Made by a program: the position numbers and the translations under genes. Of a DNA stretch of 64,000 nucleotides, positions 288-42,890 are shown piece after piece. The number at the start of each line of letters is the position of its first letter. The stretch's first letter is position 1. The notes beneath the pieces are model-generated. The model did no database searches. It was not told the DNA's origin and saw nothing but the letters and a program-made list of their open reading frames with translations. The stretch spans positions 51,338 through 115,337 of the forward strand of contig JBHGBF010000001.1 of the NCBI GenBank assembly GCA_041946865.1, given 5' to 3'. The stretch is from Acidobacteriota bacterium (GTDB taxonomy: Bacteria; Acidobacteriota; UBA6911; RPQK01).

Positions 288-2369
288 ATGAGAAGCAGCG
301 CTACTGGACTGGCGATCAGTCAATTCGAGACACCGAAGCGGCTGGACCTTGCGGTAGGTCTGGCAGTCCTGACGATCATCGGGGTGATGTTGGTCCCTGT
401 CCCGCCCTTTGTGCTTGATTTTCTGATCGCCATTAATGTGACAGCCTCCGTCATACTTTTGCTGATTTCCCTGTACGTGACGGAGCCGATCGCTTTCTCG
501 GTGTTCCCCACCGTGCTTCTCCTGATGACCCTTTACAGGCTTTCGCTGAATGTGGCGAGCACTCGTCTGATTCTGCTCGAGGGGGGATCGGGGACGTCGG
601 CGGCAGGACGCGTTATTGAGTCATTCGGACAGTTCGTGGTGGGCGGGAACTACGTGGTCGGCGCCGTGGTTTTTTTGGTGCTGATCGCCATCCAGTACAT
701 CGTGGTGAATCACGGGGCGGTGAGGACATCGGAAGTGACGGCGCGATTCACCCTGGATGCGATGCCGGGCAAGCAGATGAGCATTGACGCCGACCTGAAC
801 GCCGGTCTGATCGATGAAGAGCAGGCCCGGGAGAGGCGGAAGCGAGTGAGCCAGGAGGCCGAGTTTTACGGATCCATGGACGGGGCTGTGAGGTTCACTC
901 AACGGGACGCCGTGGCCAGCATCATCATCGTCGCCATCAACATCATTGCCGGCTTCCTGATCGGAGTCGTCAGCCATGGAATGCCGTTGATGGAAGCGAT
1001 GAAGACCTACACGATCCTGACCATTGGAGATGGACTGGTCACAGCGATCCCCGCCCTGCTGGTTTCTGTCACCGCCGGTATCATGACGACGCGAGCGGCC
1101 TCCGAGTCGGATCTGGGCGAAGAAGTCTCGACACAGATGTTCTCTGACCCGAAACCGATGGCCATCGGCGCCGCTGTGCTGATGCTGATCGCGGTCATCC
1201 CAGGACTCCCCTTTCTATCCTTCTTCCTGCTGGGTGCCAGCACGGGTGCCGTGACCTGGTACATGAGCAGGCGCAGAAAGACCGCAGCCCAGATCGTGCG
1301 AAATGAGGCGATCGCGGAAACCAGGCCACCGGAAGAAAAGATGGAGACCCTGCTGCGAGTCGACCCGCTGGGGCTCGAGCTCGGCTATCAGCTCATTCAC
1401 CTGGTCGAGAACAAACCAGGCACCGACTTCCTGTCGCACATCAAATCGATCCGCCGCCAACTGGCTTCGGAGCTGGGCGTGATAGTTCCGCCCATTCACA
1501 TCACCGACAACCTGCAACTCAAGCCCAAGGAGTATCGGATCTTGCTCAAGGGGGTCGACCTGGTCCACGGGGAACTGAACCCGGGCTTTTTGATGGCGAT
1601 CGACCCGGGCCAGGTGACCAAGGCCGTGGAGGGCATTCCTGCGCGTGAGCCGGCTTTCCAGCTCGACGCGGTCTGGATCAGGCCGGAGGACCGAGAAAAA
1701 GCTCAGCTGGCCGGCTACACGGTGGTCGAAAACACCACCGTTCTGGCCACTCACCTCACGGAGACCATCAAGGGGGTCATGCATGAGCTGCTCAGCCGGC
1801 AAGAAGTGAAAGGCCTCATCGATGCCGTCAACGAGACGCACCCGAAGGTCGTAGAGGAACTGATCCCCTCGGTGATGCGCATCGGCGAAGTCCAAAAGGT
1901 GCTTCAGAACCTCCTGCGCGAACGAGTCTCGATTCGAGACATGGTGACGATCCTGGAAACCTTGGCCGACTTCGCACCACGCACCAAGAACACTGCCTTG
2001 TTGACGGAGTACACCCGCCAGGCCCTCGGCCGGTCGATCTGTCGCCCGTTTATCGATGAGGAAGGGACTCTTCGAGTCCTTACCCTCGCCCATGATCTCG
2101 AAAGGCTTTTCGCGGATTCAATCACCGTGACGGAAGCCGACAATTTTCTGACGCTGGCTCCAGCGCACGCCAAGAACTTCATCGTCAAGCTCCAGAAGGC
2201 CCTGTCAGAAAAGCCGTTTGACGGCTATCCGATTCTGCTCGTCACGAGCAACATCCGCCTCCACGTCAGGCGCTTGGTTGAAGACGTGATCAGCAATCTC
2301 GTTGTGCTCTCTCACAACGAGATTCCTCCACACGTGAAGCTGATCAGCCTGGGAGAAGTTTCCTTATGA
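288..2369 (+). CDS. flhA: Flagellar biosynthesis protein FlhA (type III export gate)
   Basis: 693 aa. N-terminal multi-TM region and the conserved FHIPEP motifs are present. C-terminal cytoplasmic domain is present. Position is flhB-flhA-flhF. Confidence 0.95.
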   Translation: MRSSATGLAISQFETPKRLDLAVGLAVLTIIGVMLVPVPPFVLDFLIAINVTASVILLLISLYVTEPIAFSVFPTVLLLMTLYRLSLNVASTRLILLEGGSGTSAAGRVIESFGQFVVGGNYVVGAVVFLVLIAIQYIVVNHGAVRTSEVTARFTLDAMPGKQMSIDADLNAGLIDEEQARERRKRVSQEAEFYGSMDGAVRFTQRDAVASIIIVAINIIAGFLIGVVSHGMPLMEAMKTYTILTIGDGLVTAIPALLVSVTAGIMTTRAASESDLGEEVSTQMFSDPKPMAIGAAVLMLIAVIPGLPFLSFFLLGASTGAVTWYMSRRRKTAAQIVRNEAIAETRPPEEKMETLLRVDPLGLELGYQLIHLVENKPGTDFLSHIKSIRRQLASELGVIVPPIHITDNLQLKPKEYRILLKGVDLVHGELNPGFLMAIDPGQVTKAVEGIPAREPAFQLDAVWIRPEDREKAQLAGYTVVENTTVLATHLTETIKGVMHELLSRQEVKGLIDAVNETHPKVVEELIPSVMRIGEVQKVLQNLLRERVSIRDMVTILETLADFAPRTKNTALLTEYTRQALGRSICRPFIDEEGTLRVLTLAHDLERLFADSITVTEADNFLTLAPAHAKNFIVKLQKALSEKPFDGYPILLVTSNIRLHVRRLVEDVISNLVVLSHNEIPPHVKLISLGEVSL

Positions 2370-3700
2370 GGATCAAAACCTACAACTCGGATTCAGTGCC
2401 GAAGGCCCTCAAGAAGATTCAGAAGGAACTGGGCCCGGGCGCTGTCATTCTCAAGACGAACCGCACGATCAAGAGGAGATTCCTCGGGCTCGTTCCCTCG
2501 CTGGCCTACGAAATCACGGCAGCTGCCGACACAGAGGCCACCGGCCTCGAAGGGGAGCCACGACCCGTCCCTGATGCGCCGGGTGCAAAGGCTCGGTCGA
2601 CGCCAACTCGAGACGGGCAGCCGGATTCGTTGCGCCCTTCAACTCGCCCGATAGAGACCTATGAGATTGCGCAGACGCCGGTCACCGACCGGAAAAGGGA
2701 CGTCCGGCTGCGAGCGAATCCGGAACGTCCCGCGGGCAAGTCGCAGGACGAAGACTGGATAAAGCAGTTTGACAAGTTAAACCATGAGATCCGGGACTTG
2801 ATCCGGCTGGTCCATCAGCACAACGCTTTCGACGCTATGCGTGCCCTCTTGCTTCGCAACGATCCCGCGTCGGAGCGGCTCCGTGATCTGATATGGGGCG
2901 GAAACCGGAACGAACCGCGCCTGGCTTCCGCTCTGTACTCGGCCTTCGCCTCCCTGGTCGAGCAGGGAGTCGAGGAGGAGTTCGCTCTCCTGCTTGTTCA
3001 GAGGGCCGCTCAGAATCTCCCTTGTGATGAGGACCTTTCCACTCGCATCCGCGTTCGCCTGAGCAGGGCTATCTCCTCGATGGTGAGCCTGGAGCCGTTT
3101 GTCCCTTCTCCCGAGAAAAGCGCCTGTATTCTCCTGGGGCCGACCGGGGTGGGGAAGACGACGACCATCGCGAAGCTGGCGGCCCGCTTTGCCTTACGCG
3201 ACAAAAAGACGGTCCGCCTGCTTACGGTGGACACTTACAGGGTCGCGGCAGTCGAGCAACTCCAGGCCTACGGTGAGATCATCGGGACCCCGGTAAGCGT
3301 GGTCTTTTCTGTCGACGAACTGGACGCTCGCCTGCGAAAACCGGATAGCGCCGAAATCACATTGATCGACACCACGGGACACAGCCATCGGAGAATATCG
3401 GAGTACTCGTCACTGGCCGCCTATCTCTGCGACAACACCCGGCTTGAAAAGCATCTGGTTCTCAGTGCGACGACCCGGCAGAAGGACCTGCGTGACATCG
3501 TGACCTGCTTCGAGGCCTTCCGACCGGACAAGCTGCTGTTTACGAAACTCGACGAGTCTTCGACGTTCGGGGCGCTTTTCAACGAGCTGGTGCGTACCAA
3601 GAAGCCCCTTGCGTATCTGACTGAGGGCCAGGCCGTGGCGAAAGATTTGGTCGTCCCGACCCAATCAACGTTGCCGGATCTGCTCATACCAATTGAATGA
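2366..3700 (+). CDS. flhF: Flagellar biosynthesis GTPase FlhF (SRP-type)
   Basis: 444 aa. P-loop LLGPTGVGKTTTIAKLA, DTxG motif LIDTTGHS and TKLDE motif FTKLDESSTFG are typical of SRP/FtsY-family FlhF. ATGA overlap with the flhA stop. Confidence 0.85.
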   Translation: MRIKTYNSDSVPKALKKIQKELGPGAVILKTNRTIKRRFLGLVPSLAYEITAAADTEATGLEGEPRPVPDAPGAKARSTPTRDGQPDSLRPSTRPIETYEIAQTPVTDRKRDVRLRANPERPAGKSQDEDWIKQFDKLNHEIRDLIRLVHQHNAFDAMRALLLRNDPASERLRDLIWGGNRNEPRLASALYSAFASLVEQGVEEEFALLLVQRAAQNLPCDEDLSTRIRVRLSRAISSMVSLEPFVPSPEKSACILLGPTGVGKTTTIAKLAARFALRDKKTVRLLTVDTYRVAAVEQLQAYGEIIGTPVSVVFSVDELDARLRKPDSAEITLIDTTGHSHRRISEYSSLAAYLCDNTRLEKHLVLSATTRQKDLRDIVTCFEAFRPDKLLFTKLDESSTFGALFNELVRTKKPLAYLTEGQAVAKDLVVPTQSTLPDLLIPIE

Positions 3701-4596
3701 ATAACCAAGAGGCTTGCGTTCAGATGACTGATATTCAAACCACGGGTGAGAGAGGAACCTTGATGCAGCACCTGGGATGCCGGCGCACTGGCGGAAAGCC
3801 CGGGTCGAGCTCCAGTTGTCAACTGCTGGCGGTTACCAGCGGGAAGGGGGGTGTCGGAAAGACCTACGTCGTCGTCAACCTCGCTCTGGCCCTCAGCCGG
3901 GCGGGGAAGAGAGTCGCGATTCTGGATGCCGACTACGGGCTGGCCAACGTGGACGTGGTACTCGGGTTGACTCCTGAGTACCACCTGGGTCACGTGCTCG
4001 AAGGAAAGAAGAGCCTGAGATCGATCATCGTCACGGGGCCCGAAGGAATCCACCTCATCCCTGCCAGCTCGGGAGTTCAGGGCCTCACGGAAATGGGGAA
4101 CCACCGCTTGTCTTTGCTCTGGGAGGAGATCGCAGACCTGCGGCGAGACTACGATTACATCCTGGTTGACACCGCTGCCGGGATTTCAGACAACGTCATC
4201 GGGACTCTGAGCCTCTGTGACCGGGTCATCGTGATGCTGGCGCCTGAACCGACCGCGATCGTTGACGCCTATGCCCTGATCAAAGTCCTGCTTCGAAGGA
4301 ATGCACCCCAGGAAATCCTGCTTTTGGTCAACGCCGCCGAGGATGCCCGTGAAGCGGAAGGAGTGCATCGCCAGCTCGCCTGTGCGGTTGAGCGGTTCCT
4401 GGGCCGCCAGCTCGGTTATCTTGGCTGTATTCCCCGCGACCGGAAGGTCGCAGTCTCCGTGCGCAGGCAACAACCTCTGCTCATCACCCACCCGAAAAAT
4501 CTGGCGGCGCGGTACGTCCTGCGGATCGCCGACCAGTTGATGAAGCGGGATGAAGCTGCAACCGGACGGGCCAGATCAATGCTGGAGGTGAACTAA
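3697..4596 (+). CDS. flhG: MinD/ParA-type ATPase FlhG (FleN/YlxH), flagellar number regulator
   Basis: Deviant Walker A VTSGKGGVGKT followed by ILDADYGLANVDVVLG. Position flhF-flhG-fliA. True start may be an internal Met (M10 or M23); ATGA overlap with flhF. Confidence 0.85.
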   Translation: MNNQEACVQMTDIQTTGERGTLMQHLGCRRTGGKPGSSSSCQLLAVTSGKGGVGKTYVVVNLALALSRAGKRVAILDADYGLANVDVVLGLTPEYHLGHVLEGKKSLRSIIVTGPEGIHLIPASSGVQGLTEMGNHRLSLLWEEIADLRRDYDYILVDTAAGISDNVIGTLSLCDRVIVMLAPEPTAIVDAYALIKVLLRRNAPQEILLLVNAAEDAREAEGVHRQLACAVERFLGRQLGYLGCIPRDRKVAVSVRRQQPLLITHPKNLAARYVLRIADQLMKRDEAATGRARSMLEVN

Positions 4597-4601: not shown

Positions 4602-5378
4602 ATGTTACCCAATCCGTCATCCAAAGCCGAGGCCTACGAAGCCCAGAGCCGAGCCGATCGTGATCAGGTCATCCTGGAGCATCTCCCCCGCGTCAGGTAC
4701 ATCGCCCAGAGAATTGCTGCACGGCTCCCCCGGGGGGTCCAGCTTGATGACCTGGTCAGCTCAGGAATACTCGGACTCCTCGACGCCTACGAGAAGTTCG
4801 ACCCTGAAAAGGGCGTCAGTTTCCGAACGTACGCCAGCCTCCGGATAAAAGGGGCGATACTGGACAGCCTGCGTGGACTCGACTGGGCCCCTCGAGAGCT
4901 GAGAAGCAGGAGCCGTGAGATTGAACAGGCTTACGCGCGCCTGGAACAGAAGCTGAGTCGCGCGGCCACGGACGAGGAAGTGGCCGCCGAGCTGGAGATC
5001 GACCTCAAGACCTTCCATACGCTGCTTGAACGGCTCAACGGTTTGTCTGTCGGCCACTTCAGCAGCGTAGAGGGTGATCCCAGCGCCGTCGACGCCAACA
5101 ACAACGCCTTCTGGTACTCCCCGGTTTCTCCCGGAGACTCTCCCTTCGAGAGTGTCAGCAAGGCGGAACTCAGGAGACTGCTGGCGGGCATCATCGAGCA
5201 ATTGCCCAGACGCGAGCAGTTGCTGCTCAGCCTCTACTACAAAGAGGAACTGACCATGAAGGAAATCGGGCCGATTCTGGGCGTCAAGGAATCCCGTGTG
5301 TCCCAGCTTCATACCCGCGCGGTGCTCAGAATTCGTGCCAGGCTGCAATCGATCCTGAAACGGAAGCATGATTTATGA
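4602..5378 (+). CDS. fliA: RNA polymerase sigma factor FliA (sigma28)
   Basis: 258 aa. Sigma70 region 2 (DLVSSGILGLLDAYEKFDPEKGVSFRTYASLRIKGAILD) and region 4 HTH (LTMKEIGPILGVKESRVSQLHTRAV). Position after flhG. Confidence 0.9.
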   Translation: MLPNPSSKAEAYEAQSRADRDQVILEHLPRVRYIAQRIAARLPRGVQLDDLVSSGILGLLDAYEKFDPEKGVSFRTYASLRIKGAILDSLRGLDWAPRELRSRSREIEQAYARLEQKLSRAATDEEVAAELEIDLKTFHTLLERLNGLSVGHFSSVEGDPSAVDANNNAFWYSPVSPGDSPFESVSKAELRRLLAGIIEQLPRREQLLLSLYYKEELTMKEIGPILGVKESRVSQLHTRAVLRIRARLQSILKRKHDL

Positions 5379-6382
5379 GCGAGAAAGTCCTGTCGCAAGA
5401 AGAGATCAGTGCTCTCCTCGACAGTGTCAACCAGGACACTTTCAGCGAGGAGATGGTTCGAAGGCGCAGAAAGGGCAGAAGGATCCAACTCGTCGGAGAG
5501 GGGGGATACCTGTTCCCCATCTCTAAAACCACTGCGCTCAATCGGGAGGTGGAGTCGGCGCTAGGCCTGATCTTTGACGCTTTTTCCCACAAGGCGGCGG
5601 CAACCCTTTCCACGACGCTGCGAACCCAGGTCAGCTTCAAGCTTCACGACGTGGAGCAGGTGGGCTACGCCGACTACCTGGAAAGTCTGCCCGAACCTTC
5701 GTCCATGTGGTACCTGGAGGTCGAACCACACAAGTTGCATGTGGCCGTCTGTCTGGAGCCGAAACTCGTCCACACTTTGATCTCCGTCATGTTAGGTGGC
5801 GGACACATGACCCCGGCCAAGAACCGGCCATACATCACTGATCTGGAACAGACGGTCATCGAAAGCATCATCGTCTGTTTCTGTAAAGAACTGCGGCACG
5901 CCTGGAGTCGGGTTTCCGAGGTCGATATCAAAATAGATAACCGAGAGACCCGTCCCCGACTGCTCCGGATTTACCCCCCGAGCGAGACCATGGTGGTGGT
6001 AGGGATGTCGATGGAGACTGGATCCACGGAGGCGGACATGTACTGGGGAGTGCCGGGTTCGCTTCTCCGCACCCTGCAACGGGCCGTGAGTCAGCAACGC
6101 CAGGTCGAAAGCCGCGAGAAGCTGGTCGAGGTGGTCCGGCAGATGGCCAGTCTGGCCCTCAGATTCGATACTGCAGTCGAAGTGAACCTCGGCGTAACCA
6201 AGGTTTCCGTCGGAGATCTGCTCAGCCTCAAGCGGGGAGATGTCCTGACGGTCGACCACCCCATCAGAAGACCGGTTCTGGTGACTGTGAACAAGAGTCT
6301 CAAGTACACCGGAGAGCTGGTCGCATCCAACGACCACAAAGCGGTTCGAATCGGCGCCCGCCATGACAGGCGGGTGTGTTGA
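5375..6382 (+). CDS. fliM: Flagellar motor switch protein FliM
   Basis: N-terminal CheY-P binding motif LSQEEISALL. C-terminal SpoA domain (GDLLSLKRGDVLTVDH...VNKSLKYTGELV). 335 aa. Confidence 0.9.
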   Translation: MSEKVLSQEEISALLDSVNQDTFSEEMVRRRRKGRRIQLVGEGGYLFPISKTTALNREVESALGLIFDAFSHKAAATLSTTLRTQVSFKLHDVEQVGYADYLESLPEPSSMWYLEVEPHKLHVAVCLEPKLVHTLISVMLGGGHMTPAKNRPYITDLEQTVIESIIVCFCKELRHAWSRVSEVDIKIDNRETRPRLLRIYPPSETMVVVGMSMETGSTEADMYWGVPGSLLRTLQRAVSQQRQVESREKLVEVVRQMASLALRFDTAVEVNLGVTKVSVGDLLSLKRGDVLTVDHPIRRPVLVTVNKSLKYTGELVASNDHKAVRIGARHDRRVC

Positions 6383-6408: not shown

Positions 6409-6828
6409 GTGCAGACAACTATCAGTCGCGGAGCGAACAACATGGAAGAACCAAGACAAGACCAGACAAACGACGAGGATGTGCCGCCTGACCCCGACTG
6501 TACGTCGGATGATGCCTGTTCAGGTCTCGAGACGGACGATCCAGACGATCATTCTTATTCCAGGAACATCCAACGAATTCTGGATATCCATCTGCCTGTG
6601 ACAGTCAGCTTCGGCACGACGACCCTGACCCTGAACGAGGTGTTGAAGCTCGCCCCCGGCAGCCTGCTGGAATTGGACAGGTCGTCGGACGACCCGGTAC
6701 TTCTGAAGGTGAACGACAAGGCCTTCGCATGGGGCCGGGTCGTGGACGTGGACGGCTATTACGGCGTCGAGATAACCGACATTCTCAATCGCAGCGACCG
6801 AATTGCGTCGCTCGGAGGTGAGGTATGA
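6409..6828 (+). CDS. fliN: Flagellar motor switch protein FliN (SpoA domain)
   Basis: C-terminal SpoA/FliN domain LPVTVSFGTTTLTLNEVLKLAPGSLLELDRSSDDPVLLKVNDKAFAWGRVVDVDGYYGVEI. Acidic N-terminus. Start may be the internal ATG ~6442. Confidence 0.85.
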   Translation: MQTTISRGANNMEEPRQDQTNDEDVPPDPDCTSDDACSGLETDDPDDHSYSRNIQRILDIHLPVTVSFGTTTLTLNEVLKLAPGSLLELDRSSDDPVLLKVNDKAFAWGRVVDVDGYYGVEITDILNRSDRIASLGGEV

Positions 6829-7289
6829 CCAGCATCCAGGTTTGGGGATTGCAGGTGCGCTGGTGGTATCTGGTGGCCGCTGGGCTCGGCCTGGCATTTT
6901 TGTCCCAAATGCTCTTAATTTACTGCGCGATGATCTGCCAGCGGAGGTGGATCGTTCGGGAGTGCAAGGCGCTGGAGAAACGGCTGCAGGCCTCGGTGCA
7001 AGCCGCAGCCTCCAGTTTTCCGGAGTGCTCGAAAGAGGTCCACGAAGAGTTGATCAGGAAGCTGGCCCAGTGGGAAATGAGGAAGATGGCAAGCACCGAA
7101 AGGGAGCTGACCGCCAAAGCCGGAAGGTTGGAGAAGAAACACCAGGTGCTGTTGCTGGCCCGCTCGGGCCTGAACAACCATGAGATCTCCAACAAGCTGC
7201 GATTGCCGCGCGGCGAAACAGAGTTGCTTCTCGACCTGGCACGAGCCGAGTCTCAGGTCATGGCGGCAGGAAATGCCGGGACCCGATAG
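6825..7289 (+). CDS. Hypothetical membrane-anchored protein with coiled-coil and C-terminal LuxR/GerE-like HTH
   Basis: 154 aa. ATGA-coupled to the fliN stop. One N-terminal TM helix (WWYLVAAGLGLAFLSQMLLIYCAMI). Central heptad-like region. C-terminal LLLARSGLNNHEISNKLRLPRGETELLLDLA resembles the LuxR-type HTH (G-L-s-n-k-E-I-a..L). No recognised flagellar family. Confidence 0.5.
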   Translation: MTSIQVWGLQVRWWYLVAAGLGLAFLSQMLLIYCAMICQRRWIVRECKALEKRLQASVQAAASSFPECSKEVHEELIRKLAQWEMRKMASTERELTAKAGRLEKKHQVLLLARSGLNNHEISNKLRLPRGETELLLDLARAESQVMAAGNAGTR

Positions 7290-7376
7290 GCAAAGATTGC
7301 CTGCCTCGCCCGCCCCGCCAGGCCTCAAAGTCGCGAGCAGGGGTTGTTTCAAGGGGGCCTCACGAGCGGCGCGAAG

Positions 7377-7392
7377 TGGCATCCAACTTGCT
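7377..7392 (+). promoter_or_regulatory. Candidate sigma54 promoter upstream of flgF: TGGCAT-CCAAC-TTGCT
   Basis: tggcatccaacttgct matches TGGCAC-N5-TTGCW. Same hexamers as the flhA site. The predicted TSS is only a few nt before the flgF ATG (7407), which is unusual. Confidence 0.4.
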
Positions 7393-7406
7393 AAGACCCA
7401 GAGTGT

Positions 7407-8144
7407 ATGAGCCATACGATCTACACCGCCTACGCGGCCTTGCAGAGCAGAGGAGAGGCGCTCGATGTCGTGAGCAACAATCTGGCCAACATCCACACGC
7501 CGGGGTTCAAGGAGAAGCAGTTTCACTTTCGTTCGCTTGTGGGCCGGATGGCGTCAGAGATGAGCGGCCTGGGGAGTGCCATCAGCGCTCAGCAGGTCAA
7601 AACCTTTACCCACAGTGAATTTCAGCCGGGTGTTCTAACGGAGACGGGTAATCCGCTGGATCTGGCGCTGGAAGGTGACGGGTTCTTTGCCGTCAGGACT
7701 CCTGACGGAACGTACTACACCCGCAACGGACACTTCTCTCTCTCGCCGAACGGAACACTCACTACGCCGGACGGTTACCCGGTCGTGTCTGCGGCGGGGC
7801 GGCCGATCGTCTTGCCGGACGGCCGAGTAGAGGTCTCCGAGAACGGCCAGATCAGCGTCGACGGAATCCAGACGGCGCAGCTCCAAATTGTCTCCTTCCC
7901 GGACGTCAGGCAACTGACTCCGGTCGGGGAGTCGCTGTTTTCACCTCCTCAAGGCGTACAGCCTCTGCCTCCCGCCCGCGTGGCCGTCCTCCAGGGCCGG
8001 CTGGAGGAGTCAAACGTCGACCCGCTCAAGAACGTGGCGCGGATGGTGGCCCTGGTAAGGAGTTTCGAAATGTTGACTCAGGCGGTGCGATCTCTGACGA
8101 GGGATATCGACGGGAAACTGATTAACGAAGTGGGAAGGATATAG
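7407..8144 (+). CDS. flgF: Flagellar basal-body rod protein FlgF
   Basis: 245 aa. N-terminal flg_bb_rod motif (ALDVVSNNLANIHTPGFK) and C-terminal rod domain (LQGRLEESNVDPLKNVARMV). Confidence 0.9.
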   Translation: MSHTIYTAYAALQSRGEALDVVSNNLANIHTPGFKEKQFHFRSLVGRMASEMSGLGSAISAQQVKTFTHSEFQPGVLTETGNPLDLALEGDGFFAVRTPDGTYYTRNGHFSLSPNGTLTTPDGYPVVSAAGRPIVLPDGRVEVSENGQISVDGIQTAQLQIVSFPDVRQLTPVGESLFSPPQGVQPLPPARVAVLQGRLEESNVDPLKNVARMVALVRSFEMLTQAVRSLTRDIDGKLINEVGRI

Positions 8145-15871: not shown

Positions 15872-16303
15872 ATGTCCAGAGAGGTCGCCACCGGACGTTT
15901 CGGCAATGTCCGGTATGAAGACCGTGACGTGATCAGGATGGTAGCGGGCATGCCTGGGTTCGAATCTCTCAGGCAGTTTCTGCTCATTGACAGCACGGAG
16001 TATGAGCCGGTCAAGTTCCTGCAGTCCCTGGAGGAACCACGCATCTCTTTCCCGCTCATCGACCCGCGGCTGGTCCGAAGCGATTACCGGGTGTCGCTCG
16101 ATGCCGCCCAGCAGGAGAGCCTCGGATTGGACCATCCCGGGGAGGGACTGGTCTACTCCATTCTGACGCTGGGTGACAACCCCGCGGAGGTGACAGCGAA
16201 TCTGTTTGCTCCGGTGGTGATCAACCTCGCGACGATGAAGGCCGCACAGATCATCTTGTTTGAGAGCGAATACTCGGTCGAGGAGCCCGTGCTGGGAGGC
16301 TAA
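15872..16303 (+). CDS. fliW: Flagellar assembly factor FliW (CsrA antagonist)
   Basis: [31 protein letters not shown]...FLLID aligns to the FliW N-terminus (MIIDTKYHGQMDVKEQDIIVFPNGLPGFE). An upstream in-frame ATG at 15854 is also possible. Confidence 0.85.
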
Positions 16304-17760
16304 TGCTCGTTTTCACCCGAAAGCCCGGCGAGAGTCTGATGGTCGGTGACGCCGTCGAGATCAGGATCTTGTCCGTTGGCCACGATCAGGTTCGGATAGG
16401 GATCAGCGCCCCGCGAGAGGTCCCGGTCCACCGCCGGGAAATCTACGACTCCATCACGCGCCAGAACCGCCTGGCCTCCAGTTCGGCGACTCCTCCCAGA
16501 GAACTGCTGGAAAGACTCAAGAGGAGTTAAGCCCTTCCGGCCGGATCCCGTGACCCATTCCGTAACGCTTGTTGCCCGGATGATCGACTCTTCGCGAGTG
16601 GCGCCGAGCGTGATCACGAATCCGGAACGCTTGGTGTGGTCGGTGACTGCCGGTGCGGCGTTCCCCGGCGCCAGTAACAGCTCGCAGCGATGGATCCAGG
16701 AAAAAGCTGCCAGCTGCCGGGGATCGGGAAGGCGCAAGATCTGCCCGATACGCGGAAAGAAGTACCGGATTGCCACTGCCTTTTCGGCGCGCGGCTGGAT
16801 CTCCCACGGCTCGACCCGGTTGCCGAGCGCCAGGCGGATGGCAATGCCGAGCATGTCCACTCCGGTCGCCAAGGGAATCTGATCGGTGGCAAACCAGCCG
16901 CCGGACAGGCGCGCCGCCATCTCGATGACCTTGGGACCCTGCGCTGTCAAGACCATGTCTCCTTTGGCTGTCCCCCAGTTGATCCCCAGCACGCGAGCCG
17001 CCTTTTCCGCCAAGGCAACAACCTTCTGCCGGGGAGAGGGCCCGAGAACGCTGGGCATTGTTCCGCCGTTCTCCACGATGAAAGGAGAGAAACGCTCCAA
17101 GTACTCGTAGTTGCGGTCGCTGAATCCGGGCGTGGACGCGAGGGCGCCCAAGAATATCGATTCGGTGCTGATCTGCGGTCCGGCGAGATACTCCTCGACC
17201 ATGAGCCGCCCGGAAGGCGAAAACGCCCGGGAATGCCGGATAGCCCACTCCAGGTTCAGGCCGCGTGTGATCCGGAGAACACCTCGGGCGCCGCGGCTGT
17301 CGACCGGTTTGAGCACGACCGGAAGCCCCCATTCGTGAATGGCCGACACCAGATCGGACACGCAGTTGACGGGCTTGAAGCGGGGAATCGGGATGCCGGC
17401 CCTCAGGAAGTGTTCCTTCATCGCCAGCTTGTCGGTTGCCAGCCTGGCGGTCTCCCAGGAAGGACCGGGCAGGTCCAGAGCCTGCGCCACTGCTGCGACA
17501 GTCCTGGGCACATCGGCAGCCACGCAGAGAATTCCGTCAAGCCGCCGGCGCTTGGAAAATTCGCGCGCCGCCTGCAGGTGGCCCTGCTCATCGTAGGTAT
17601 CGAGCACGCAGGCATGGTCGGCAAGCTTCAGACCTGGCGCCTGGGGATTGCCATCACTCACCACCACGTAGAGGCCCATCTCTTTGGCGCGGCGGATGCC
17701 TGGCACAGCCTCAATCCCCCCACTTACGATCCATAGCGTCTTGGGCTTGCGTGCGGTCAT
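16300..17760 (-). CDS. ATP-grasp domain enzyme, terminal gene of the glycosylation operon; 3' ~230 nt runs antisense across csrA
   Basis: Start [15 protein letters not shown] at 17760 (ATGA overlap with the upstream gene). ATP-grasp fold features ([35 protein letters not shown]). No in-frame stop until 16300. Confidence 0.6.
16303..16530 (+). CDS. csrA: Carbon storage regulator CsrA
   Basis: [48 protein letters not shown] is a near-canonical CsrA. The TAATG junction overlaps the fliW stop. Confidence 0.9.
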
Positions 17761-19013
17761 ACAGCCTCTCTTCGAGCGGCCGGGCATCCGGCCAGTTCTG
17801 ACGCCATCCTTCCGTGCTCTGCCGCCTTGCGGCGCAGGCCAGGGAGCGCCGCGAGGATGCCGGCACGGATCGAGCCGCGATCCCCCCAGATCTCTTGGGC
17901 CCGGCGCTGCAAGAGCGGGAGGTCGAAATCCTCGAGTCTCATGAAGCGGTCTCCGATTGACAGCTCGTCCATGGCCGGTCTGATGTGCCACTCTCCGCCG
18001 GAGGCGAACGGCACCACTCCGTGAATCGCGGCAAAAATCAAGGAGTGCCGGCGGTTGGAGAAGTGCATGTCCAGCAGCGGGAACAACGACAGGATCTGGG
18101 GCAGAGTGTACTTCCCCTGAATCCGATGGGCCGCGCGCGCGTTTCGCATCGCGGCTACGATCTCGTCCGCCACCGGACGGTCGTCCTCATACCGATGGTC
18201 GATGTTGTAGGTGCAGTTGGGGATGAAAAGCAGCTCGGCCCCGAACTCCTCGACCATGTAATCGCACAGCCCGGCCAGCAGCCCTCGGTAGTGGTGCCAG
18301 GTCGCCTCGTCCCAGCTCCAGTAGTGATGGCGGAAATTGATCCCGACCCTGCGGCTGGACCGGAATTGAATTCCTTCGCGTTGCAGAATTGCCCATCCCG
18401 GCGCCGTGTCAAGGACCGGATCGAGTCCGAAGGCGGCGTCGGCAAGGACGGCCGTATTAGCCGTAGGAATCCCCATCTGGTCGAGCACGTCTCGCGAAAA
18501 ACCCTCGCGCAGGGTCACGAGGTCCGCGTTAGTGACGCAGAAGCGCGTCAGCTCCCGGCCCAGCGGCGTCTCGAGTCTGCGCCCCATGTGGATGCAGTAG
18601 AGCATGACCGGCTTCTGCAAAAACCTGGCCAGGGTGATGAGCAACGCGGCGTACGGGGCCAGTCCCCGGTTGAAAGCCAGCGAGATCTCCTGGAAAGGAT
18701 CACCCCCGATGATCAGAAGATCGCACTGCTCGATAGCCTTCCAGATCTTCCTCAGATGCTCGGTCGAGTCGTTCGGATTCAGCCCCCAGAACCAGCGGCC
18801 CAGGCTCTGCGCCTTGCTGTCATGCTCGAGGTTCTTGATCGACTCTACCCGGAAGAACTCGTCCAGCTTGGGACCAGGGTGGCGAGCGAGGAGCGTCAGG
18901 TGGACTTCCGGCATAGCCTCATGAAGCTCCCGGCAGAGCACACTGAGCAGCGCCTCGTCGCCTTGATTCTCAATTCCATACACGCTCGTACCGGCAATGA
19001 CCACTCTCTTCAT
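17757..19013 (-). CDS. Polysaccharide pyruvyl transferase-like protein (PS_pyruv_trans family), paralog 1
   Basis: 418 aa. MKRVVIAGTSVYGIENQGDEALL...CDLLIIGGDPF...RHSLIFAAIHGVVPF. ~45% identical by eye to the adjacent paralog. Family assignment from motif memory. Confidence 0.55.
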   Translation of the reverse strand: MKRVVIAGTSVYGIENQGDEALLSVLCRELHEAMPEVHLTLLARHPGPKLDEFFRVESIKNLEHDSKAQSLGRWFWGLNPNDSTEHLRKIWKAIEQCDLLIIGGDPFQEISLAFNRGLAPYAALLITLARFLQKPVMLYCIHMGRRLETPLGRELTRFCVTNADLVTLREGFSRDVLDQMGIPTANTAVLADAAFGLDPVLDTAPGWAILQREGIQFRSSRRVGINFRHHYWSWDEATWHHYRGLLAGLCDYMVEEFGAELLFIPNCTYNIDHRYEDDRPVADEIVAAMRNARAAHRIQGKYTLPQILSLFPLLDMHFSNRRHSLIFAAIHGVVPFASGGEWHIRPAMDELSIGDRFMRLEDFDLPLLQRRAQEIWGDRGSIRAGILAALPGLRRKAAEHGRMASELAGCPAARREAV

Positions 19014-19030
19014 TAGAAACCTCCGTTGAC

Positions 19031-20272
19031 TCAGGATTCCCTCGCTCGTTGAATAACAAGATCGGCCGCGCGGGCCGAGTGTTCGCGTGCTTTTTGCCGC
19101 AAAGCCGGCAGGACGGGGCGGAGCCGGTCCGACAGGGTGGCGCGCTTGACCCAGGCGTCCAGGCAGAGGGATTCCAGCTTTCCAGGGCCGAATTCGTCGT
19201 AAGGGATGAAGAACTCGCTCAATCCCAGTTCATCCATAAACGGGGTCATATGCCACGCCTCCCCGATTCCTACACCGGGAATTCCGTGGATGGCGCCGAA
19301 AATGACCGAGTGCCTGCGATTGGCGATAACCAACGAAAGAAGCGAGAACAGTGAAACCATTGCGTCTACACAATGGCGGCCCTTTATTTGAAAAGCCCGA
19401 TCCTGGCGCCGCATCTGCCGCACAATTTCTTCGGCCGCCGGGCGGTCGTCCTCGTACTTGTGATCCAGATCATAGGTGCAGTGAGGGATGAACAGGATGT
19501 CGGCGCCGGCCTTTTCAACCAGCGCGTCACAGACGGCTGCTATCGTCCGGGAGTGGAAATTCCAGTCGCCCTGGTTCCACTTCCAATACATATGCCGGAA
19601 AGTCACCCCGATCAGAGGCCTGGCAGGAACGGGGATGCTCTCCTTTTCCAAAACCAGAAGCGCTTGTTGCGGTGTTCCGGGCGCCAGACCGAAGGCCGGG
19701 TCCGCCAGGGCGACAATATTCTCGCCGGTCAGCCCCAGCGTCTCCAGCACGCGTTTGGAAAACTCCTCTCTGACCGTTACCAGACTGGCGTTCCCGGCGC
19801 AGAATCTGGCGATCTGTCTTCCGTACTCGGTCTGCAAAGGACGCCCGACATGGATGCCCAGAAACATCACGGGGATTCCCAGGAACTTCGCCAGCGTAAC
19901 GAGGAGCGCCGCATACGGCGCGGGGCCCCGGTATAGATCGAGGGTGACTTCCAAAAACGGGTCCGCCCCGATCACCAGCAGGTCTGAGGAACCGATGGTG
20001 TCGGCAATTCGGCGCAAGTGATCGGTCGAGTCTCCGGCGTTCAACCCTCGAAACCATCTCCCCAGGCTTGACTTCTTGTTGGCGTGATCAAGATTGGGGG
20101 TTGACTTCACTCCGAAGGCCTCATCAACCTCGGGCCCCGGGTGTCTGGCGAGCAGTACGAACTCTGCCTCCGGCACTGCCTCGCGAAGCCCCCGGGTGAA
20201 GACGGTGAGCATGGCATCGTCGCTCAAGTTGTTGAGGCCATACACGCTAGGCCCCGCTATCGTTATTCTCAT
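19031..20272 (-). CDS. Polysaccharide pyruvyl transferase-like protein, paralog 2
   Basis: 413 aa. MRITIAGPSVYGLNNLSDDAMLTVF...SDLLVIGADPF...RHSVIFGAIHGIPGVGI. Tandem duplicate of 17757..19013. Confidence 0.55.
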   Translation of the reverse strand: MRITIAGPSVYGLNNLSDDAMLTVFTRGLREAVPEAEFVLLARHPGPEVDEAFGVKSTPNLDHANKKSSLGRWFRGLNAGDSTDHLRRIADTIGSSDLLVIGADPFLEVTLDLYRGPAPYAALLVTLAKFLGIPVMFLGIHVGRPLQTEYGRQIARFCAGNASLVTVREEFSKRVLETLGLTGENIVALADPAFGLAPGTPQQALLVLEKESIPVPARPLIGVTFRHMYWKWNQGDWNFHSRTIAAVCDALVEKAGADILFIPHCTYDLDHKYEDDRPAAEEIVRQMRRQDRAFQIKGRHCVDAMVSLFSLLSLVIANRRHSVIFGAIHGIPGVGIGEAWHMTPFMDELGLSEFFIPYDEFGPGKLESLCLDAWVKRATLSDRLRPVLPALRQKAREHSARAADLVIQRARES

Positions 20273-21446
20273 GTCGTCTCCGGTTCCCTCTCGCTTGCTT
20301 TTCCCCTTGGCCCCTTTGCTCCTTGACCCCTTTTGTCCCTCGAAAGCAACTTGCAGCTATATCTGCACGGTTGATACCGTACGCGCGCGGCGTGCCCCCG
20401 TGAGAGACCTGATTCCGCACGGCCAGTCGTGACTCTATGCTGCGACGGATCCTTTCCGCCCCTCGTCCGTCAATCAGCCTGCTCGCGCGCGCAGACATGT
20501 CGCGCCGCCTTTTGGAATGGCTGCAGAGCTCGCTGACAAGCCCGACCAGCTTCCCTTCCTCCAGCTCGGAGTACAGTCCTGCCCCCACGGTCGCTCCTGC
20601 CTCCACCATGAACTGCCCCGATATCTGGTGGTCCAGCGACCAGTAAATGTGGATTGCGGGAACTCCGAACGAGGCCAGTTCCAGGGCTGTGACACCGTAT
20701 GAAGCCACCGCCAGGTCGGCGCCCTCCATCAGCTCTGCCGGTTCTTCCGGGGACTCGATGATCCGAGCTGGAAGCGGACAATCCCCTATTGCCCTTCGAA
20801 GCTTTGCATGGTCTCGGAAGCCTGGCCCGATCATCACATCCAAGGCGGCAGAAACCGACAGGCGCGACAGCAAGGCGACGGTGCGGGCGCTCATGCCATA
20901 AGGGTCACTGCCACCCATCGTGATCAGGATCCTGCTCACACGGGTGAAATCCGCTTGCGGTGTGCGAGCCCGGGGGACCAACCCCAACAGCGCGTACTCG
21001 GGGCCTGCGAACAGTTCGCCCCGGTATCCTCCCCACTCGAGGGCGTCAGCCCCGTGATGGGAAGCGTAGAAAGCCAGATCACAATTCAGCCGCCTTGGTG
21101 AAGGGTCATCAATCGTGACCACGAGGATGCCGCGCTCACTGGCCCAGGAAATGATCGAGGCGGGCAAATCGTCGCGAACATCGAGGACCAGGACCCCCGG
21201 TTGGCCTTCGGCCAAGACTCCTTGAAACCAGCCGGAGTACGCGTCGGGGGGTGCCGGGACGACGGGGAGCCCCTTTCTTTGCAGCCACTCCAAGCCCTCG
21301 GCGCTGTCCCGCACGACAAAGGAAATCTCGACTCCAGGCCAGTGTTGCTGCATCTCGCGAGCAAGGGAGGAGCACCGGGTCAGATGCCCCATCCCCAATC
21401 GGAAAGAACCGTCACATCTGAATAGGACCTTCGCCCGAGTGTTCAT
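20247..21446 (-). CDS. pseG: PseG-like UDP-sugar hydrolase (pseudaminic acid pathway, MurG-like fold)
   Basis: N-terminal FRCDGSFRLGMGHLTRCSSLA matches the PseG signature (RADASxxIGxGHxMRCLxLA). C-terminal glycosyltransferase-28 domain. Confidence 0.6.
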   Translation of the reverse strand: MNTRAKVLFRCDGSFRLGMGHLTRCSSLAREMQQHWPGVEISFVVRDSAEGLEWLQRKGLPVVPAPPDAYSGWFQGVLAEGQPGVLVLDVRDDLPASIISWASERGILVVTIDDPSPRRLNCDLAFYASHHGADALEWGGYRGELFAGPEYALLGLVPRARTPQADFTRVSRILITMGGSDPYGMSARTVALLSRLSVSAALDVMIGPGFRDHAKLRRAIGDCPLPARIIESPEEPAELMEGADLAVASYGVTALELASFGVPAIHIYWSLDHQISGQFMVEAGATVGAGLYSELEEGKLVGLVSELCSHSKRRRDMSARASRLIDGRGAERIRRSIESRLAVRNQVSHGGTPRAYGINRADIAASCFRGTKGVKEQRGQGEKQARGNRRRHENNDSGA

Positions 21447-22417
21447 AGCGCCTGCCAGGTTGAGGGATTGACCAGATCCGGGTCATCGACACGAAGAACT
21501 TGTGAGATCTGGGTCGAGAGTGTAAGCGGCCCCTTTCGCAGGGCCGCCAGCGCAGCTCGGAGCTCGCAAACTGTTCTCGGGCCTGCCAGAACGGTGGAAA
21601 TCGACGAGACACCGAGGCAATAGCGGACGGCCACCTCCGGTAGGTCCTTCCATCCGGTCTCCAGCAGCTTCAGAACGCGTTCGACCGCCAGCTGCAGAGG
21701 CCGCAGCTGCGGCCCCAGCCACCGGCCCTTTGGAGAAAGAACCCCCTTGAGAAGCGCCGAGCGGGCCATAATCCCTACGCCGGATTGAAAGGCCCTGGGC
21801 AAGACTCGCTCAGCCATCTGCTGGTCCAACAGATTGAACGCAACCTGCAGGACTCGAATCCGGGGATCGCAGAGAGCGGCGAGCGCGTTGTGCTCGCCGT
21901 AGACTGAGGCCCCGATAAGCCCGATTTTTCCCTGCTCGCTAAGCCGGGAAAGGGTCTCGAGCATGTCCCCGCGCTGAATCACCTCCCCGGTTGCGTTGTG
22001 GATTTGAACGATGTCGAGGAAATCGCGCCGCAGCTTCCTGAGGCTGGATTCTACCGAGCTCTCGAGCGATTTGCGGAGGTCCCGCGGATCGATCCGGCAA
22101 CCGGCCGGGTTCGGGCCAGCGGGTACTGCCACCTTGGTGGCGAAGTGACAGCCCCGGTTGTCCCCCAGGGCTTCACCCAGCAGTTCCTCGCTCATCCCGT
22201 AGGCAGGGGCGGTGTCGAACAGAGTGATCCCCGCGTCAGCGGCGATCTTCAGCAACCGGATCGCCTGTTGGCGCGAGGGTCGCCTCCAGCCGCCCGGCTG
22301 GCGGATTCCATAGTCTAGCCCGAGGGAGACGGTTCCCATCGAAAGGGCGGAAACCATGAGCCCTGTCTCTCCCAGGGGTCGGTACTGTATTGTCGGACCA
22401 GGCGCCGGTGTGTTCAT
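21443..22417 (-). CDS. Aldo/keto reductase family oxidoreductase
   Basis: Start MNTPAPGPTIQYRPLGETGLMVSALSMGT. AKR motifs (GITLFDTAPAYG, IGASVYGE). ATGA-type coupling on both sides. Confidence 0.7.
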   Translation of the reverse strand: MNTPAPGPTIQYRPLGETGLMVSALSMGTVSLGLDYGIRQPGGWRRPSRQQAIRLLKIAADAGITLFDTAPAYGMSEELLGEALGDNRGCHFATKVAVPAGPNPAGCRIDPRDLRKSLESSVESSLRKLRRDFLDIVQIHNATGEVIQRGDMLETLSRLSEQGKIGLIGASVYGEHNALAALCDPRIRVLQVAFNLLDQQMAERVLPRAFQSGVGIMARSALLKGVLSPKGRWLGPQLRPLQLAVERVLKLLETGWKDLPEVAVRYCLGVSSISTVLAGPRTVCELRAALAALRKGPLTLSTQISQVLRVDDPDLVNPSTWQAL

Positions 22418-23736
22418 GTCAGGCGATAGAAACCTCTTTCCGCGGCGGTCTCCGCTGGTTGGAGCTCCCCGGAGGCGAGCAGCAACAAGGCCTCGGCTAC
22501 TGCCTCCACGTATCGGTCCACATCGGCGTCGGTATGGGCGAAACAAGGCTTGAACTGCGAGTACGCCAGGAATCCCCGGTCGAGCATCAGTCTGGTGAAA
22601 AGCGTGCGAAGCACGTGGCTGTTCGGATGACGGAAGCTGAAGTGACTCAGGCTGGGCAGTCCGCCGACCTCGATCTCCAGGCCGGCGGCGGCTGCCGCCC
22701 GTCCCCAGCCCTGCTGGACCCGACGCCCAATCCTCTTCAGGTGCTCCGCGACCTTCTCCCGGCGGTGTTTTCTGATTGTGGCCAGGGCGGCTGCAGGACC
22801 GATCCGTTCCGTCCAGTTGGTACTGCTGATGAAGGTAGTCTTGGCCGCCTCCATGACGTCGGTCCTGCCGATGACTGCGGCCATGGCGTATCCGTTCGCC
22901 ATGGCCTTGGCAAAGACAGCGACGTCGGGCTCGATCCCCAGCAGGAGGTGAATTCCACCCGAGGTCATCCGAAAGCCGGTCGTGATCTCATCGAAGACGA
23001 GCACGGCCCCCACCCTCTGGGCAATCTGGCGGACGCGCTGGATGAAACCATTTTCAGGGGGGTGTTCACGCTGCGGTTCCATGACGATAGCGGCCAGCTC
23101 GGATCCGTGGGCAGCGACGATTTCCTCCAACTCTTCGATCCGGTTGTAGTGGAACGGAAAGGCCGTTCCTTTCAGCGAGCGGGGCACTCCGCGAGGGTCG
23201 AGTCCCGGCAGGAGATGCCCGTCCAGGGCGTCGTGGTCGCCCAGGTTGGCGGCGAGGTACCAGTCGGTCCAGCCGTGGTACCCGCAAAAGGCCACCTTGT
23301 CCCGGCCAGTGGACGCGCGGGCGAGGCGCACGGCGATGGACATCGCCTCCCCGCCGGAGCGGGCAAAACGAACCATTCCGGCCCAGGGGTGGATCTCGCA
23401 CAGCAGCTCCGCCAGCTCCACTTCTTCGGGGGCATTGAGAGTGCAGAGGACGCCGCGGCGAAGGGCAGAGATGGCCGCCTCGTCCACCTCCGGATCGGCG
23501 TAGCCGAGAACGCAAGCCCCGATGCCCATCATGCTCATGTCGGTAAAGACTCGTCCGTCCAGATCGGTGACCCGCACCCCCTGGGCGGACTGATAGTAAG
23601 CCGGCCATCCCTCGGGGAGGTACAGCTCGGGACGCTTGGACAGAAGCTGCGTTCCGCCCGGGATCAACTGCCTGGCGCGCTGGTAGAGTCTTTCTCCCGC
23701 CGTTCCTTTCTGCCGGCCCTCGTTCGTTGACCTCAT
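22414..23736 (-). CDS. Class-III (glutamate-1-semialdehyde aminomutase-like) PLP aminotransferase
   Basis: Start MRSTNEGRQ at 23736. Class-III aminotransferase features (GYHGWTDWY, VFDEITTGFR, VAVFAKAMANGYAMAAVIG). Such GSA-AT homologs are common in flagellin-glycosylation islands. Confidence 0.7.
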   Translation of the reverse strand: MRSTNEGRQKGTAGERLYQRARQLIPGGTQLLSKRPELYLPEGWPAYYQSAQGVRVTDLDGRVFTDMSMMGIGACVLGYADPEVDEAAISALRRGVLCTLNAPEEVELAELLCEIHPWAGMVRFARSGGEAMSIAVRLARASTGRDKVAFCGYHGWTDWYLAANLGDHDALDGHLLPGLDPRGVPRSLKGTAFPFHYNRIEELEEIVAAHGSELAAIVMEPQREHPPENGFIQRVRQIAQRVGAVLVFDEITTGFRMTSGGIHLLLGIEPDVAVFAKAMANGYAMAAVIGRTDVMEAAKTTFISSTNWTERIGPAAALATIRKHRREKVAEHLKRIGRRVQQGWGRAAAAAGLEIEVGGLPSLSHFSFRHPNSHVLRTLFTRLMLDRGFLAYSQFKPCFAHTDADVDRYVEAVAEALLLLASGELQPAETAAERGFYRLT

Positions 23737-23752
23737 CAGTTCCCTCTTCCTG

Positions 23753-24574
23753 TCACCGTGTCGCACCGCCTTCCCACACGCGGTCATAGCCTTCGCGTCC
23801 GATGAACTGAGCGTTTAATGCCGCCAACTCAGGCCGTCGCTCGATCAATTTCAGGATGTCGTGCATGGAAAAGGCTGGGTTCTTGGCGTAAAGCTCGCGA
23901 TAGATCTCCCTCGCCAGGTCCAGATCGGCTCCATTGTCCACCGTCCACCGGTATCGGGAGTAGTCGGCAGGAGCAGTCAAGGCGGCGGTACGAAAGCGTC
24001 CAGGGACGCGCCAGATGTAAGGCGTCACGTGCTCCCGGTCCGAAGGCTCAATAGCCTCTTCCCAGGCGCGACGAAGCGCGTTGAAACTGAAGCATTCGGC
24101 GTCCAATCCGTCCGGATAGCGGCCTGAGTCGAGGAAGACGGCGCCGGCGCCGGTCGCCACTCCCAGGTGTTCCCAATTCCCTTCGCCGTAGAACCGGATC
24201 AACTCAGAAATCAGTGGCCCGTCAACGAAGGGGCAATCCCCCGTGACGCGGATGATCGGGTCTGCGTCGAATATTCGGGCTGCCTGGTAAAAACGATCCA
24301 GGACATCGTCCTCGGACCCCCTGAAAACAGGTATGGTTTCGCGCCGGCAGTAGTCCGCAAGCGGTTGGTTGGCGACATGGGTGGACGTGGCCACGACGAC
24401 CAGTCCCACCTCCGGTACCTGGCGAAGACGCGTTACGATGTGCCAGATCATGGGTTTTCCGAGGATCTCCGCCATGACCTTGCCTTTGAGGCGGGTCGAC
24501 CCCATGCGCGCTTGAACCATGGCTACTGACGGCATCGGGCCTCCCTTTCCCACTGTTGTCGCACTTGACGACAA
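23753..24574 (-). CDS. pseF: Acylneuraminate cytidylyltransferase-family protein (PseF/SpsF-like CMP-sugar synthetase)
   Basis: VAMVQARMGSTRLKGKVMAEILGKPMIWH is the SpsF/NeuA-type nucleotidyltransferase N-terminus. 273 aa. Confidence 0.65.
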   Translation of the reverse strand: MSSSATTVGKGGPMPSVAMVQARMGSTRLKGKVMAEILGKPMIWHIVTRLRQVPEVGLVVVATSTHVANQPLADYCRRETIPVFRGSEDDVLDRFYQAARIFDADPIIRVTGDCPFVDGPLISELIRFYGEGNWEHLGVATGAGAVFLDSGRYPDGLDAECFSFNALRRAWEEAIEPSDREHVTPYIWRVPGRFRTAALTAPADYSRYRWTVDNGADLDLAREIYRELYAKNPAFSMHDILKLIERRPELAALNAQFIGREGYDRVWEGGATR

Positions 24575-27653: not shown

Positions 27654-27676
27654 CCTGTTCGCTTGGAAACCTCCGG

Positions 27677-29891: not shown

Positions 29892-30010
29892 GCCGCGTGC
29901 CAGCTTTACGGCGGACGCTGGTAACCGCGCACTGCCGCCATAAAATCTTCGGAATTAAACATTTGTCGCGGCTCTTTAGGACAGGTGGGAGCTTTGGCTC
30001 GCAATGACAG

Positions 30011-30040
30011 ATTCTTGACGCTTTCGCTGGAGTTCTTGAC
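30011..30040. promoter_or_regulatory. Direct repeat TTCTTGACG x2 (21-nt spacing) in the divergent promoter region between glycosylation operon and Fe-ADH/NeuB operon
   Basis: Reads attcttgacgctttcgctggagttcttgacgatttcatgac. Repeat starts are two helical turns apart. Contains TTGACG -35-like hexamers. Confidence 0.3.
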
Positions 30041-30148
30041 GATTTCATGACCCGACGTGCCTTTAACCGCTTGTGTCTGAGGTGGCCTCCTGGCGGCCAA
30101 TCCTGTGCGGAGGGATTCTAAGCGGGGTGGGGGCGTTGCCTCGGCAAT

Positions 30149-42889: not shown

Positions 42890-42890
42890 C

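Follow-up and report, generated by a model that had tools for sequence, protein, structure and literature searches.

FipA (FlhF interaction partner A) has been described from Vibrio parahaemolyticus (VP2224), Pseudomonas putida (PP_4331) and Shewanella putrefaciens (Arroyo-Perez et al., eLife 2024, PMC11620751). It is a protein of 163 amino acids (aa), in which residues 1–5 are periplasmic, residues 6–28 form a transmembrane (TM) helix, residues 31–58 form a coiled region, and the C-terminal part carries DUF2802, the defining domain of FipA (PMC11620751). The fipA gene lies at the end of the operon for FlhA, FlhF, FlhG and FliA, and FipA is restricted to genomes with FlhF and FlhG (PMC11620751). 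Residues G110, E126 and L129 are 100% conserved among FipA homologues, the substitutions G110A and L129A abolish FlhF binding in V. parahaemolyticus, and FipA self-interacts via a region other than the conserved motif (PMC11620751). Here, we describe a 154-aa open reading frame (ORF154; positions 6825–7289, plus strand) from a 64,000-nt stretch of an Acidobacteriota genome (contig JBHGBF010000001.1, positions 51,338–115,337; hereafter the window). ORF154 encodes a FipA-like protein of Pfam family DUF6115, homologous to DUF2802, and the comparison with FipA, on balance, favours a bitopic inner-membrane protein that most likely binds FlhF and holds it at the membrane.

ORF154 is a real gene and not a chance ORF, with 47 relatives at E-values ≤ 1e-3. 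As stated in an earlier annotation made from the letters of this DNA alone (the sequence-only reading), it overlaps the stop codon of fliN: the ATG (6825–6827) shares two nucleotides with the fliN TGA (6826–6828), and a GGAGG Shine–Dalgarno sequence (6814–6818) is located 6 nt 5′ of the ATG, so that the whole fliN/ORF154 junction spans 6814–6828 (plus strand). The junction is tight in relatives too, with a 1-nt gap in locus L010 and almost abutting tblastn matches in locus L011. The GC contents at the first, second and third codon positions of ORF154 (0.57, 0.43 and 0.77, respectively) follow the same pattern as those of the adjacent flagellar genes. A spurious ORF is ruled out by conservation, codon-position composition and a confident structure model, and the 203-aa ORF that overlaps ORF154 on the minus strand (6915–7526) was treated as a GC-rich shadow frame. 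NCBI already lists the exact ORF154 protein, from an Acidobacteriota metagenome-assembled genome (MAG), under the name DUF6115 domain-containing protein.

An exhaustive phmmer search of 1.84 billion cluster representatives (E ≤ 1e-3) revealed 48 proteins (ORF154 and 47 others), nearly all of them 123–166 aa long and most aligned over most of their length; a word-indexed protein search with ORF154 alone returned the protein itself as the sole match, and the relatives came from the exhaustive search. The sequence-only reading had known of no described family that would fit, and this part of it did not hold, as ORF154 scores above the Pfam cut-off for DUF6115 (PF19610; 29.4 bits vs. 27, E-value 1.2e-6, residues 37–138 on profile positions 32–133 of 134). 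DUF6115, itself an uncharacterised family, is matched by 41 out of 43 aligned relatives, and DUF2802 (PF10975) by 29 out of 43 at E ≤ 0.01, with the best E-value being 3e-8; both Pfam labels occur in the precomputed annotation of many homologues. Comparison by hhalign of the 43-sequence family profile with 17 canonical DUF2802 proteins from beta-proteobacteria (Sulfuricella and relatives) gave a probability of 98.1% and an E-value of 1.1e-13 over 42 columns. The literature searched contained no mention of DUF6115, PF19610 or SpiroCoCo, and no match to the PLSDB plasmids was obtained by tblastn with either ORF154 or a canonical DUF2802 protein. A weak NCBIfam match (E-value 1.2e-4, 21 bits vs. 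a cut-off of 125) was observed between residues 74–136 of ORF154 and the C-terminal end of a spirochaete SpiroCoCo family coiled-coil protein; judging by this similarity, the same helix-turn-helix (HTH)-like terminal module may occur in spirochaete coiled-coil proteins.

The protein is composed of three parts. The single N-terminal TM helix that had been read from the sequence is supported by hydropathy analysis, which revealed one hydrophobic segment with a Kyte–Doolittle maximum of 1.98 at residues 16–34; together with the structure model, the helix covers residues ~13–38 (6861–6938, plus strand), with basic residues on its C-terminal, cytoplasmic side, and its placement corresponds to that of the FipA TM helix (residues 6–28). 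Because the basic stretch QRRWIVRECK comes right after the hydrophobic segment, the positive-inside rule points to an N-out/C-in topology, in which the short N-terminus would lie outside and most of the protein would be cytoplasmic. The TM helix is followed by a long, poorly conserved helical linker (residues 39–98; 6939–7118, plus strand), recognised by its helices in the model and its variable alignment columns, which is possibly a coiled coil or self-association region. The conserved C-terminal domain (residues 101–140; 7125–7244, plus strand) is a three-helix, HTH-like module homologous to DUF2802; in ORF154, its conserved pattern reads L-E-K-K-H...G115...I121...L125...G-E131-T-E-L134-L-L-x-L. 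The AlphaFold2 model of full-length ORF154, built from a 39-sequence alignment, has a predicted local distance difference test score (pLDDT) of 90.9 (96–98 in the TM helix), with helices at residues 3–64 and 66–98 and a three-helix module at residues 101–113, 118–125 and 129–152. When the C-terminal 58 residues were modelled alone with cropped homologues, three helices were again obtained (pLDDT 89.7, predicted template modelling score 0.68). The C-terminal segment adopts a tri-helical HTH fold in the model, and Foldseek agrees with this fold at probabilities of 0.95–0.99 and weak E-values.

In the 43-sequence alignment, the N-terminal two thirds of the proteins are variable, and almost all conservation falls in the last ~40 residues, in the motif L-[DE]-[KR]-[KR]-H-x-V-x-x-L-A-x-x-G-x-x-x-x-[DE]-I-[SA]-x-x-L-x-[LMI]-P-x-G-E-x-E-L-[ILV]-[LV]-x-L. 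Residues G115, I121, L125 and E131 are invariant, and V108, L111, G130, L134 and L138 are conserved in at least 90% of the sequences. For comparison with FipA, the published primers for site-directed mutagenesis were used to reconstruct residues 103–137 of the V. parahaemolyticus protein (VpFipA), ATKMVQLGADINELI(R)ECELPKAEAELMLSLQKKL. This stretch aligns without gaps with residues 108–142 of ORF154, VLLLARSGLNNHEISNKLRLPRGETELLLDLARAE, sharing the common core LP[KR]xExEL[ML]LxL, and the alignment places G110, E126 and L129 of VpFipA, at identical spacing, on G115 (codon 7167–7169), E131 (7215–7217) and L134 (7224–7226) of ORF154 (all within 7167–7226, plus strand). These three residues are found in 43 out of 43, 43 out of 43, and 42 out of 43 relatives, respectively (100%, 100% and 98%). 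Like FipA, ORF154 has a short N-terminus, a single TM helix, a helical region and one conserved, homologous C-terminal domain, and at 154 aa (vs. 163 aa for FipA), it falls within the ~130–165 aa range of proteins with this architecture.

The genomic position of ORF154 is also similar to that of fipA, as the gene is the last of a unit with flhA, flhF, flhG and fliA and co-occurs with FlhF and FlhG. In all loci that show the genes upstream, with the exception of L006/L007 and L015, the homologue comes immediately after fliN, behind the string flhA-flhF-flhG-fliA-fliM-fliN, and is followed by flgF-flgG-flgA-flgH-flgI. The full order was observed in the window (identical to L001), in L002, L003, L004, L008, L016 and L018, and in the Acidobacteriota MAG loci L010, L012 and L014; the partial contigs L005, L009, L011, L013 and L017 are consistent with it as far as they extend. 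Both flhF and flhG are present in the gene string of the homologue in the window and in nine further loci. A locus search with a 10-sequence alignment gave five loci, all of them from Acidobacteriota MAGs. In L006/L007, the homologue is flanked by an HDOD gene upstream and an MshEN-domain gene downstream, and flgF is still located just beyond. The beta-proteobacterial, Sulfuricella-like locus L015 contains a canonical DUF2802 gene (5209–5592) in the order flaG-fliD-fliS-fliT-x-DUF2802-fliK, and this position between fliT and fliK, away from the end of the flhF operon, implies that the family has moved within flagellar regulons. The sequence-only reading had made its proposal depend on conservation in related flagellar loci; such synteny does exist, because the homologue is retained after fliN in these loci. 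At the protein level, ORF154 shares ~39% identity with its counterparts in L010, L011 and L012, 36% with that in L014 and 31% with that in L013, while its neighbours are far more similar in the same MAG loci by tblastn (FlhA ~75%, FlgG 85–87%, FliN 65–69%); the FipA-like gene has a much higher rate of evolution than the genes beside it.

Several relatives encode a protein of ~290 aa between the FipA-like gene and flgF (L010, 8413–9273; L012, 8284–9132; L014, 8266–9117; L006, 2096–2980; L007, 942–1826), and its gene overlaps the FipA-like gene by ~20 nt in L010. The copies in L006/L007 match Pfam MshEN (T2SSE_N-type), a domain type that is a candidate binder of cyclic di-GMP, and those in L010, L012 and L014 are tied to the MshEN protein by tblastn only (29% identity, E-value 2e-18). 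No copy of this protein was found in the window at E ≤ 1. The FipA-like and MshEN proteins may form a functional unit in those genomes. HDOD signalling proteins also recur with these flagellar clusters: HDOD/HD genes lie beside flhA in L003 (1–372) and L004 (1–542) and beside the FipA-like gene in L006 (756–1643), and an EAL-HDOD protein is encoded in the window at 41651–43030 (minus strand).

Based on the comparison with FipA, a course of events may be proposed for ORF154. The protein would be made from a transcript shared with FlhA, FlhF, FlhG, FliA, FliM and FliN, and would insert with its C-terminus in the cytoplasm, leaving a very short periplasmic N-terminus and one TM helix. The long, fast-evolving cytoplasmic helical stalk may self-associate, and the three-helix domain, although evolutionarily an HTH, would work as a protein-binding module, the conserved G115/G-E131-x-E-L134 surface of which would bind the signal recognition particle (SRP)-type GTPase FlhF. 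FlhF would thereby be kept at the membrane, presumably at the pole, as FipA does in Vibrio, Pseudomonas and Shewanella. Membrane-bound FlhF would then capture FliG and FliF and so nucleate the MS-ring and the C-ring, with FlhG limiting the number of flagella; these roles of FlhF and FlhG have been reviewed (PMC12826062). In Acidobacteriota, ORF154 would in this way influence the placement or number of flagella.

Several observations weigh against the assignment of ORF154 as a FlhF-binding, FipA-like protein. The authors of the FipA study present the family as a gamma-proteobacterial one, which Bacillus, epsilon-proteobacteria and spirochaetes lack (PMC11620751), whereas ORF154 belongs to Acidobacteriota, and its function is thus being transferred across phyla. 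The homologous part spans only ~42 residues, and in the conserved stretch, identity to VpFipA amounts to 9 out of 35 positions. ORF154 remains below the DUF2802 gathering score (16.1 bits vs. 33.5, E-value 0.013, residues 109–140 on profile positions 37–68 of 68) and is placed in the sister Pfam family DUF6115, and the L-[DE]-[KR]-[KR]-H motif before helix 1 is clade-specific, being missing from proteobacterial DUF2802. Moreover, the role of G115 and L134 may be no more than structural within the fold. The gene order differs as well, since fipA follows che genes, whereas ORF154 is inserted between fliN and flgF.

Among the other explanations, the one that survives best is that the HTH-like domain binds a different flagellar partner, such as FlhG, FliM/FliN, the FlhA/FlhB export gate (in the manner of a SwrB-like activator of flagellar type III secretion), sigma-28 or FlgM; we consider this unlikely, though worth keeping in mind. 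The model for the export gate is SwrB of Bacillus subtilis, described as a monotopic activator of this secretion. SwrB resembles ORF154 in its single N-terminal TM helix, its cytoplasmic C-terminal domain (~120 aa) and the location of its gene at the 3′ end of an flhA/flhF/flhG/sigma-28 operon. The two differ in that SwrB is described as having little conservation in its cytoplasmic domain, with the critical residues at the TM junction, whereas the ORF154 family is conserved in the C-terminal HTH-like module.

The sequence-only reading had proposed that ORF154 could be a membrane-tethered DNA-binding HTH protein that regulates an assembly checkpoint; such a transcription factor would act, for example, at the sigma-54 promoters of flgF or flhA. 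The HTH fold that it had seen in the C-terminal segment stood up to structure prediction (AlphaFold2 model and Foldseek), while its assignment to the LuxR/GerE type did not: no match to Pfam GerE (PF00196) was found for ORF154 at E ≤ 1, none of the 18 families matched by the 43 members at E ≤ 0.01 is GerE, and the profile searches led to DUF6115 and DUF2802 instead. The LuxR/GerE domain consists of four helices and has a recognition helix with polar or basic DNA contacts, as seen in NarL–DNA complexes such as 1JE8. The domain of ORF154 differs from this NarL/FixJ type in having three predicted helices, in being joined to a TM helix rather than to a receiver or ligand-binding domain, and in the replacement of the recognition helix by the acidic and hydrophobic G-E-x-E-L-[ILV]-[LV] segment. 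In helix 3 (G-E-x-E-L-[ILV]-[LV]-x-L), E131 is invariant, position 133 is acidic in 88% of the sequences and positions 134–136 and 138 are hydrophobic; across positions 130–138, essentially no basic residue is found (a single K or R at two positions), and the mean net charge of helix 3 is −0.7. The domain profile matches known DNA-binding folds weakly (the PAI subdomain of Sleeping Beauty, E-value 1.2e-3; Pax5, 2.9e-3; NarL, 0.14, with PDB NarL sequences at 0.14–0.6), and HTH_23 is matched by 7 out of 43 members. NarL and StyR are matched up to profile position 31 and DesR up to position 35, with these end points lying at the GE.EL motif of helix 3 or just short of it. What speaks for DNA binding is that positions 104 and 105 are always basic and that the domain as a whole has a mean net charge of +2.5. 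Against it stand the acidic, hydrophobic helix 3, the missing GerE match and fourth helix, and the documented function of the homologous FipA domain as a FlhF-binding module (PMC11620751). ORF154 is probably not a DNA-binding checkpoint regulator, because its studied relatives anchor FlhF to the membrane, and we regard such a role as improbable. The strictly conserved surface of helix 3 is also where the FipA residues required to bind FlhF are found. The most plausible reading of the domain is an HTH fold that has been co-opted for binding a protein. The FipA paper contains no mention of an HTH or of AlphaFold.

The annotation of the family in databases deserves a comment of its own. Automatic JGI annotation names one homologue (P0067) a 'DNA-binding NarL/FixJ family response regulator', and the labels given to others are EnvC, FtsB, precorrin methylase or RNase H-like nuclease. 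Misannotation comes easily in this family, and pipelines draw the same HTH inference as the earlier reading did.

That ORF154 is FliO, the poorly conserved bitopic export-apparatus chaperone encoded after fliN in enterobacterial operons, would suit its position directly after fliN, its size and its single N-terminal TM helix, but this is very improbable and was already denied by the sequence-only reading, with which we agree: there is no Pfam match to FliO (PF04347) at E ≤ 1, the next genes are flgF, flgG, flgA, flgH and flgI rather than fliP, fliQ and fliR, and the conserved part of ORF154 is a DUF2802-like HTH module, which FliO lacks. An anti-sigma factor was set aside, the topology of ORF154 being reversed relative to classical membrane anti-sigma factors and no match supporting this reading.

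The genes around the FipA-like ORF154 are arranged on the plus strand of the window as follows: flhA (288–2369), flhF (2366–3700), flhG (3697–4596), fliA for sigma-28 (4602–5378), fliM (5375–6382) and fliN (6409–6828), the stop codon of which overlaps the ORF154 start. The proposed partner system, FlhF and FlhG, was recognised by Pfam SRP54 and ParA/CbiA on the identical genes of L001, and FliN by Pfam FliMN_C (E-value 9e-23). After a 117-nt spacer, ORF154 is followed by flgF (7407–8144), and then by flgG, flgA, flgH, flgI, flgJ, flgM, flgN and flgK. A pattern search for TGGCA-N6-TTGC gave three sigma-54-like matches in the window vs. 0.49 expected, two of which lie ahead of flhA (221–235) and flgF (a −24/−12 element, TGGCATCCAACTTGC, 7377–7391, plus strand); the third is found at 29888–29902 (minus strand). 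The same pattern occurs ahead of flhA in L010 (1290–1304), L012 (1173–1187) and L014 (1307–1321), and ahead of flgF in L010 (9301–9315) and L006 (3109–3123). Because such elements precede both flhA and flgF, the flhA transcription unit most likely ends with ORF154. The sequence-only reading had put a sigma-54-type flgF promoter 117 nt beyond ORF154; the element exists, but 117 nt is the distance from the ORF154 stop to the flgF start codon, whereas the element begins 88 nt after the ORF154 stop and ends 16 nt before the flgF ATG. A transcript from this element would have a leader of a few nt, which means that either flgF is nearly leaderless or the match is not the real start site. An Rfam scan of the window gave no match, the 117-nt spacer folds no better than its shuffles (z = 0.35), and no convincing intrinsic terminator was found after ORF154, the terminator-like matches all being inside coding sequence.

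Elsewhere in the window, a 703-aa protein (56158–58266, minus strand) combines an N-terminal OmpR/PhoB-type winged-helix DNA-binding domain (Trans_reg_C, residues 24–98) with subsequent PD40/WD40 beta-propeller repeats. Its domains suggest a putative transcription factor tethered to the membrane in the manner of ToxR/CadC, which would fit the description of a membrane-anchored DNA-binding protein better than ORF154 does. Downstream of flgK, flgL and fliW, the block at ~16300–34000 encodes an ATP-grasp enzyme (16300–17991, minus strand), a class-III aminotransferase (22417–23787, minus strand), a Fe-alcohol dehydrogenase-like protein (30073–31353, plus strand) and NeuB (32234–33505, plus strand), and is probably a nonulosonic-acid (flagellin glycosylation) island.

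The DUF6115 label of the gene in GenBank was already known, as was FipA, its closest characterised relative, published in 2024. New with respect to the literature searched are the link between DUF6115 and DUF2802, the HTH fold, and the finding that flhF operons of Acidobacteriota and of further uncultured lineages have FipA-type genes as a fixed component. The work on ORF154 usefully improves the annotation and extends the FipA story to a modest degree. It also calls for caution, as the domain resembles the LuxR/NarL HTH and misled one automated pipeline, yet probably does not bind DNA. FipA was described in 2024 as a gamma-proteobacterial answer to the question of how the soluble GTPase FlhF finds the membrane site of flagellum building; the present results give DUF6115 a testable function and suggest that FipA-type proteins have anchored FlhF for longer, and in more lineages, than has been reported. 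A bolder idea, which we put forward tentatively and with some doubt, is that DUF6115 and DUF2802 might be one ancient, HTH-derived superfamily of FlhF membrane anchors extending well beyond gamma-proteobacteria, to Acidobacteriota, several uncultured lineages with the order flhA-flhF-flhG-fliA-fliM-fliN-X-flgF and beta-proteobacteria, possibly with functional analogues like SwrB in Firmicutes. If this is true, FipA could no longer be seen, as in the published view, as an invention of the gamma-proteobacteria, and FlhF would join its SRP relatives Ffh and FtsY in having a dedicated, widely conserved membrane receptor.
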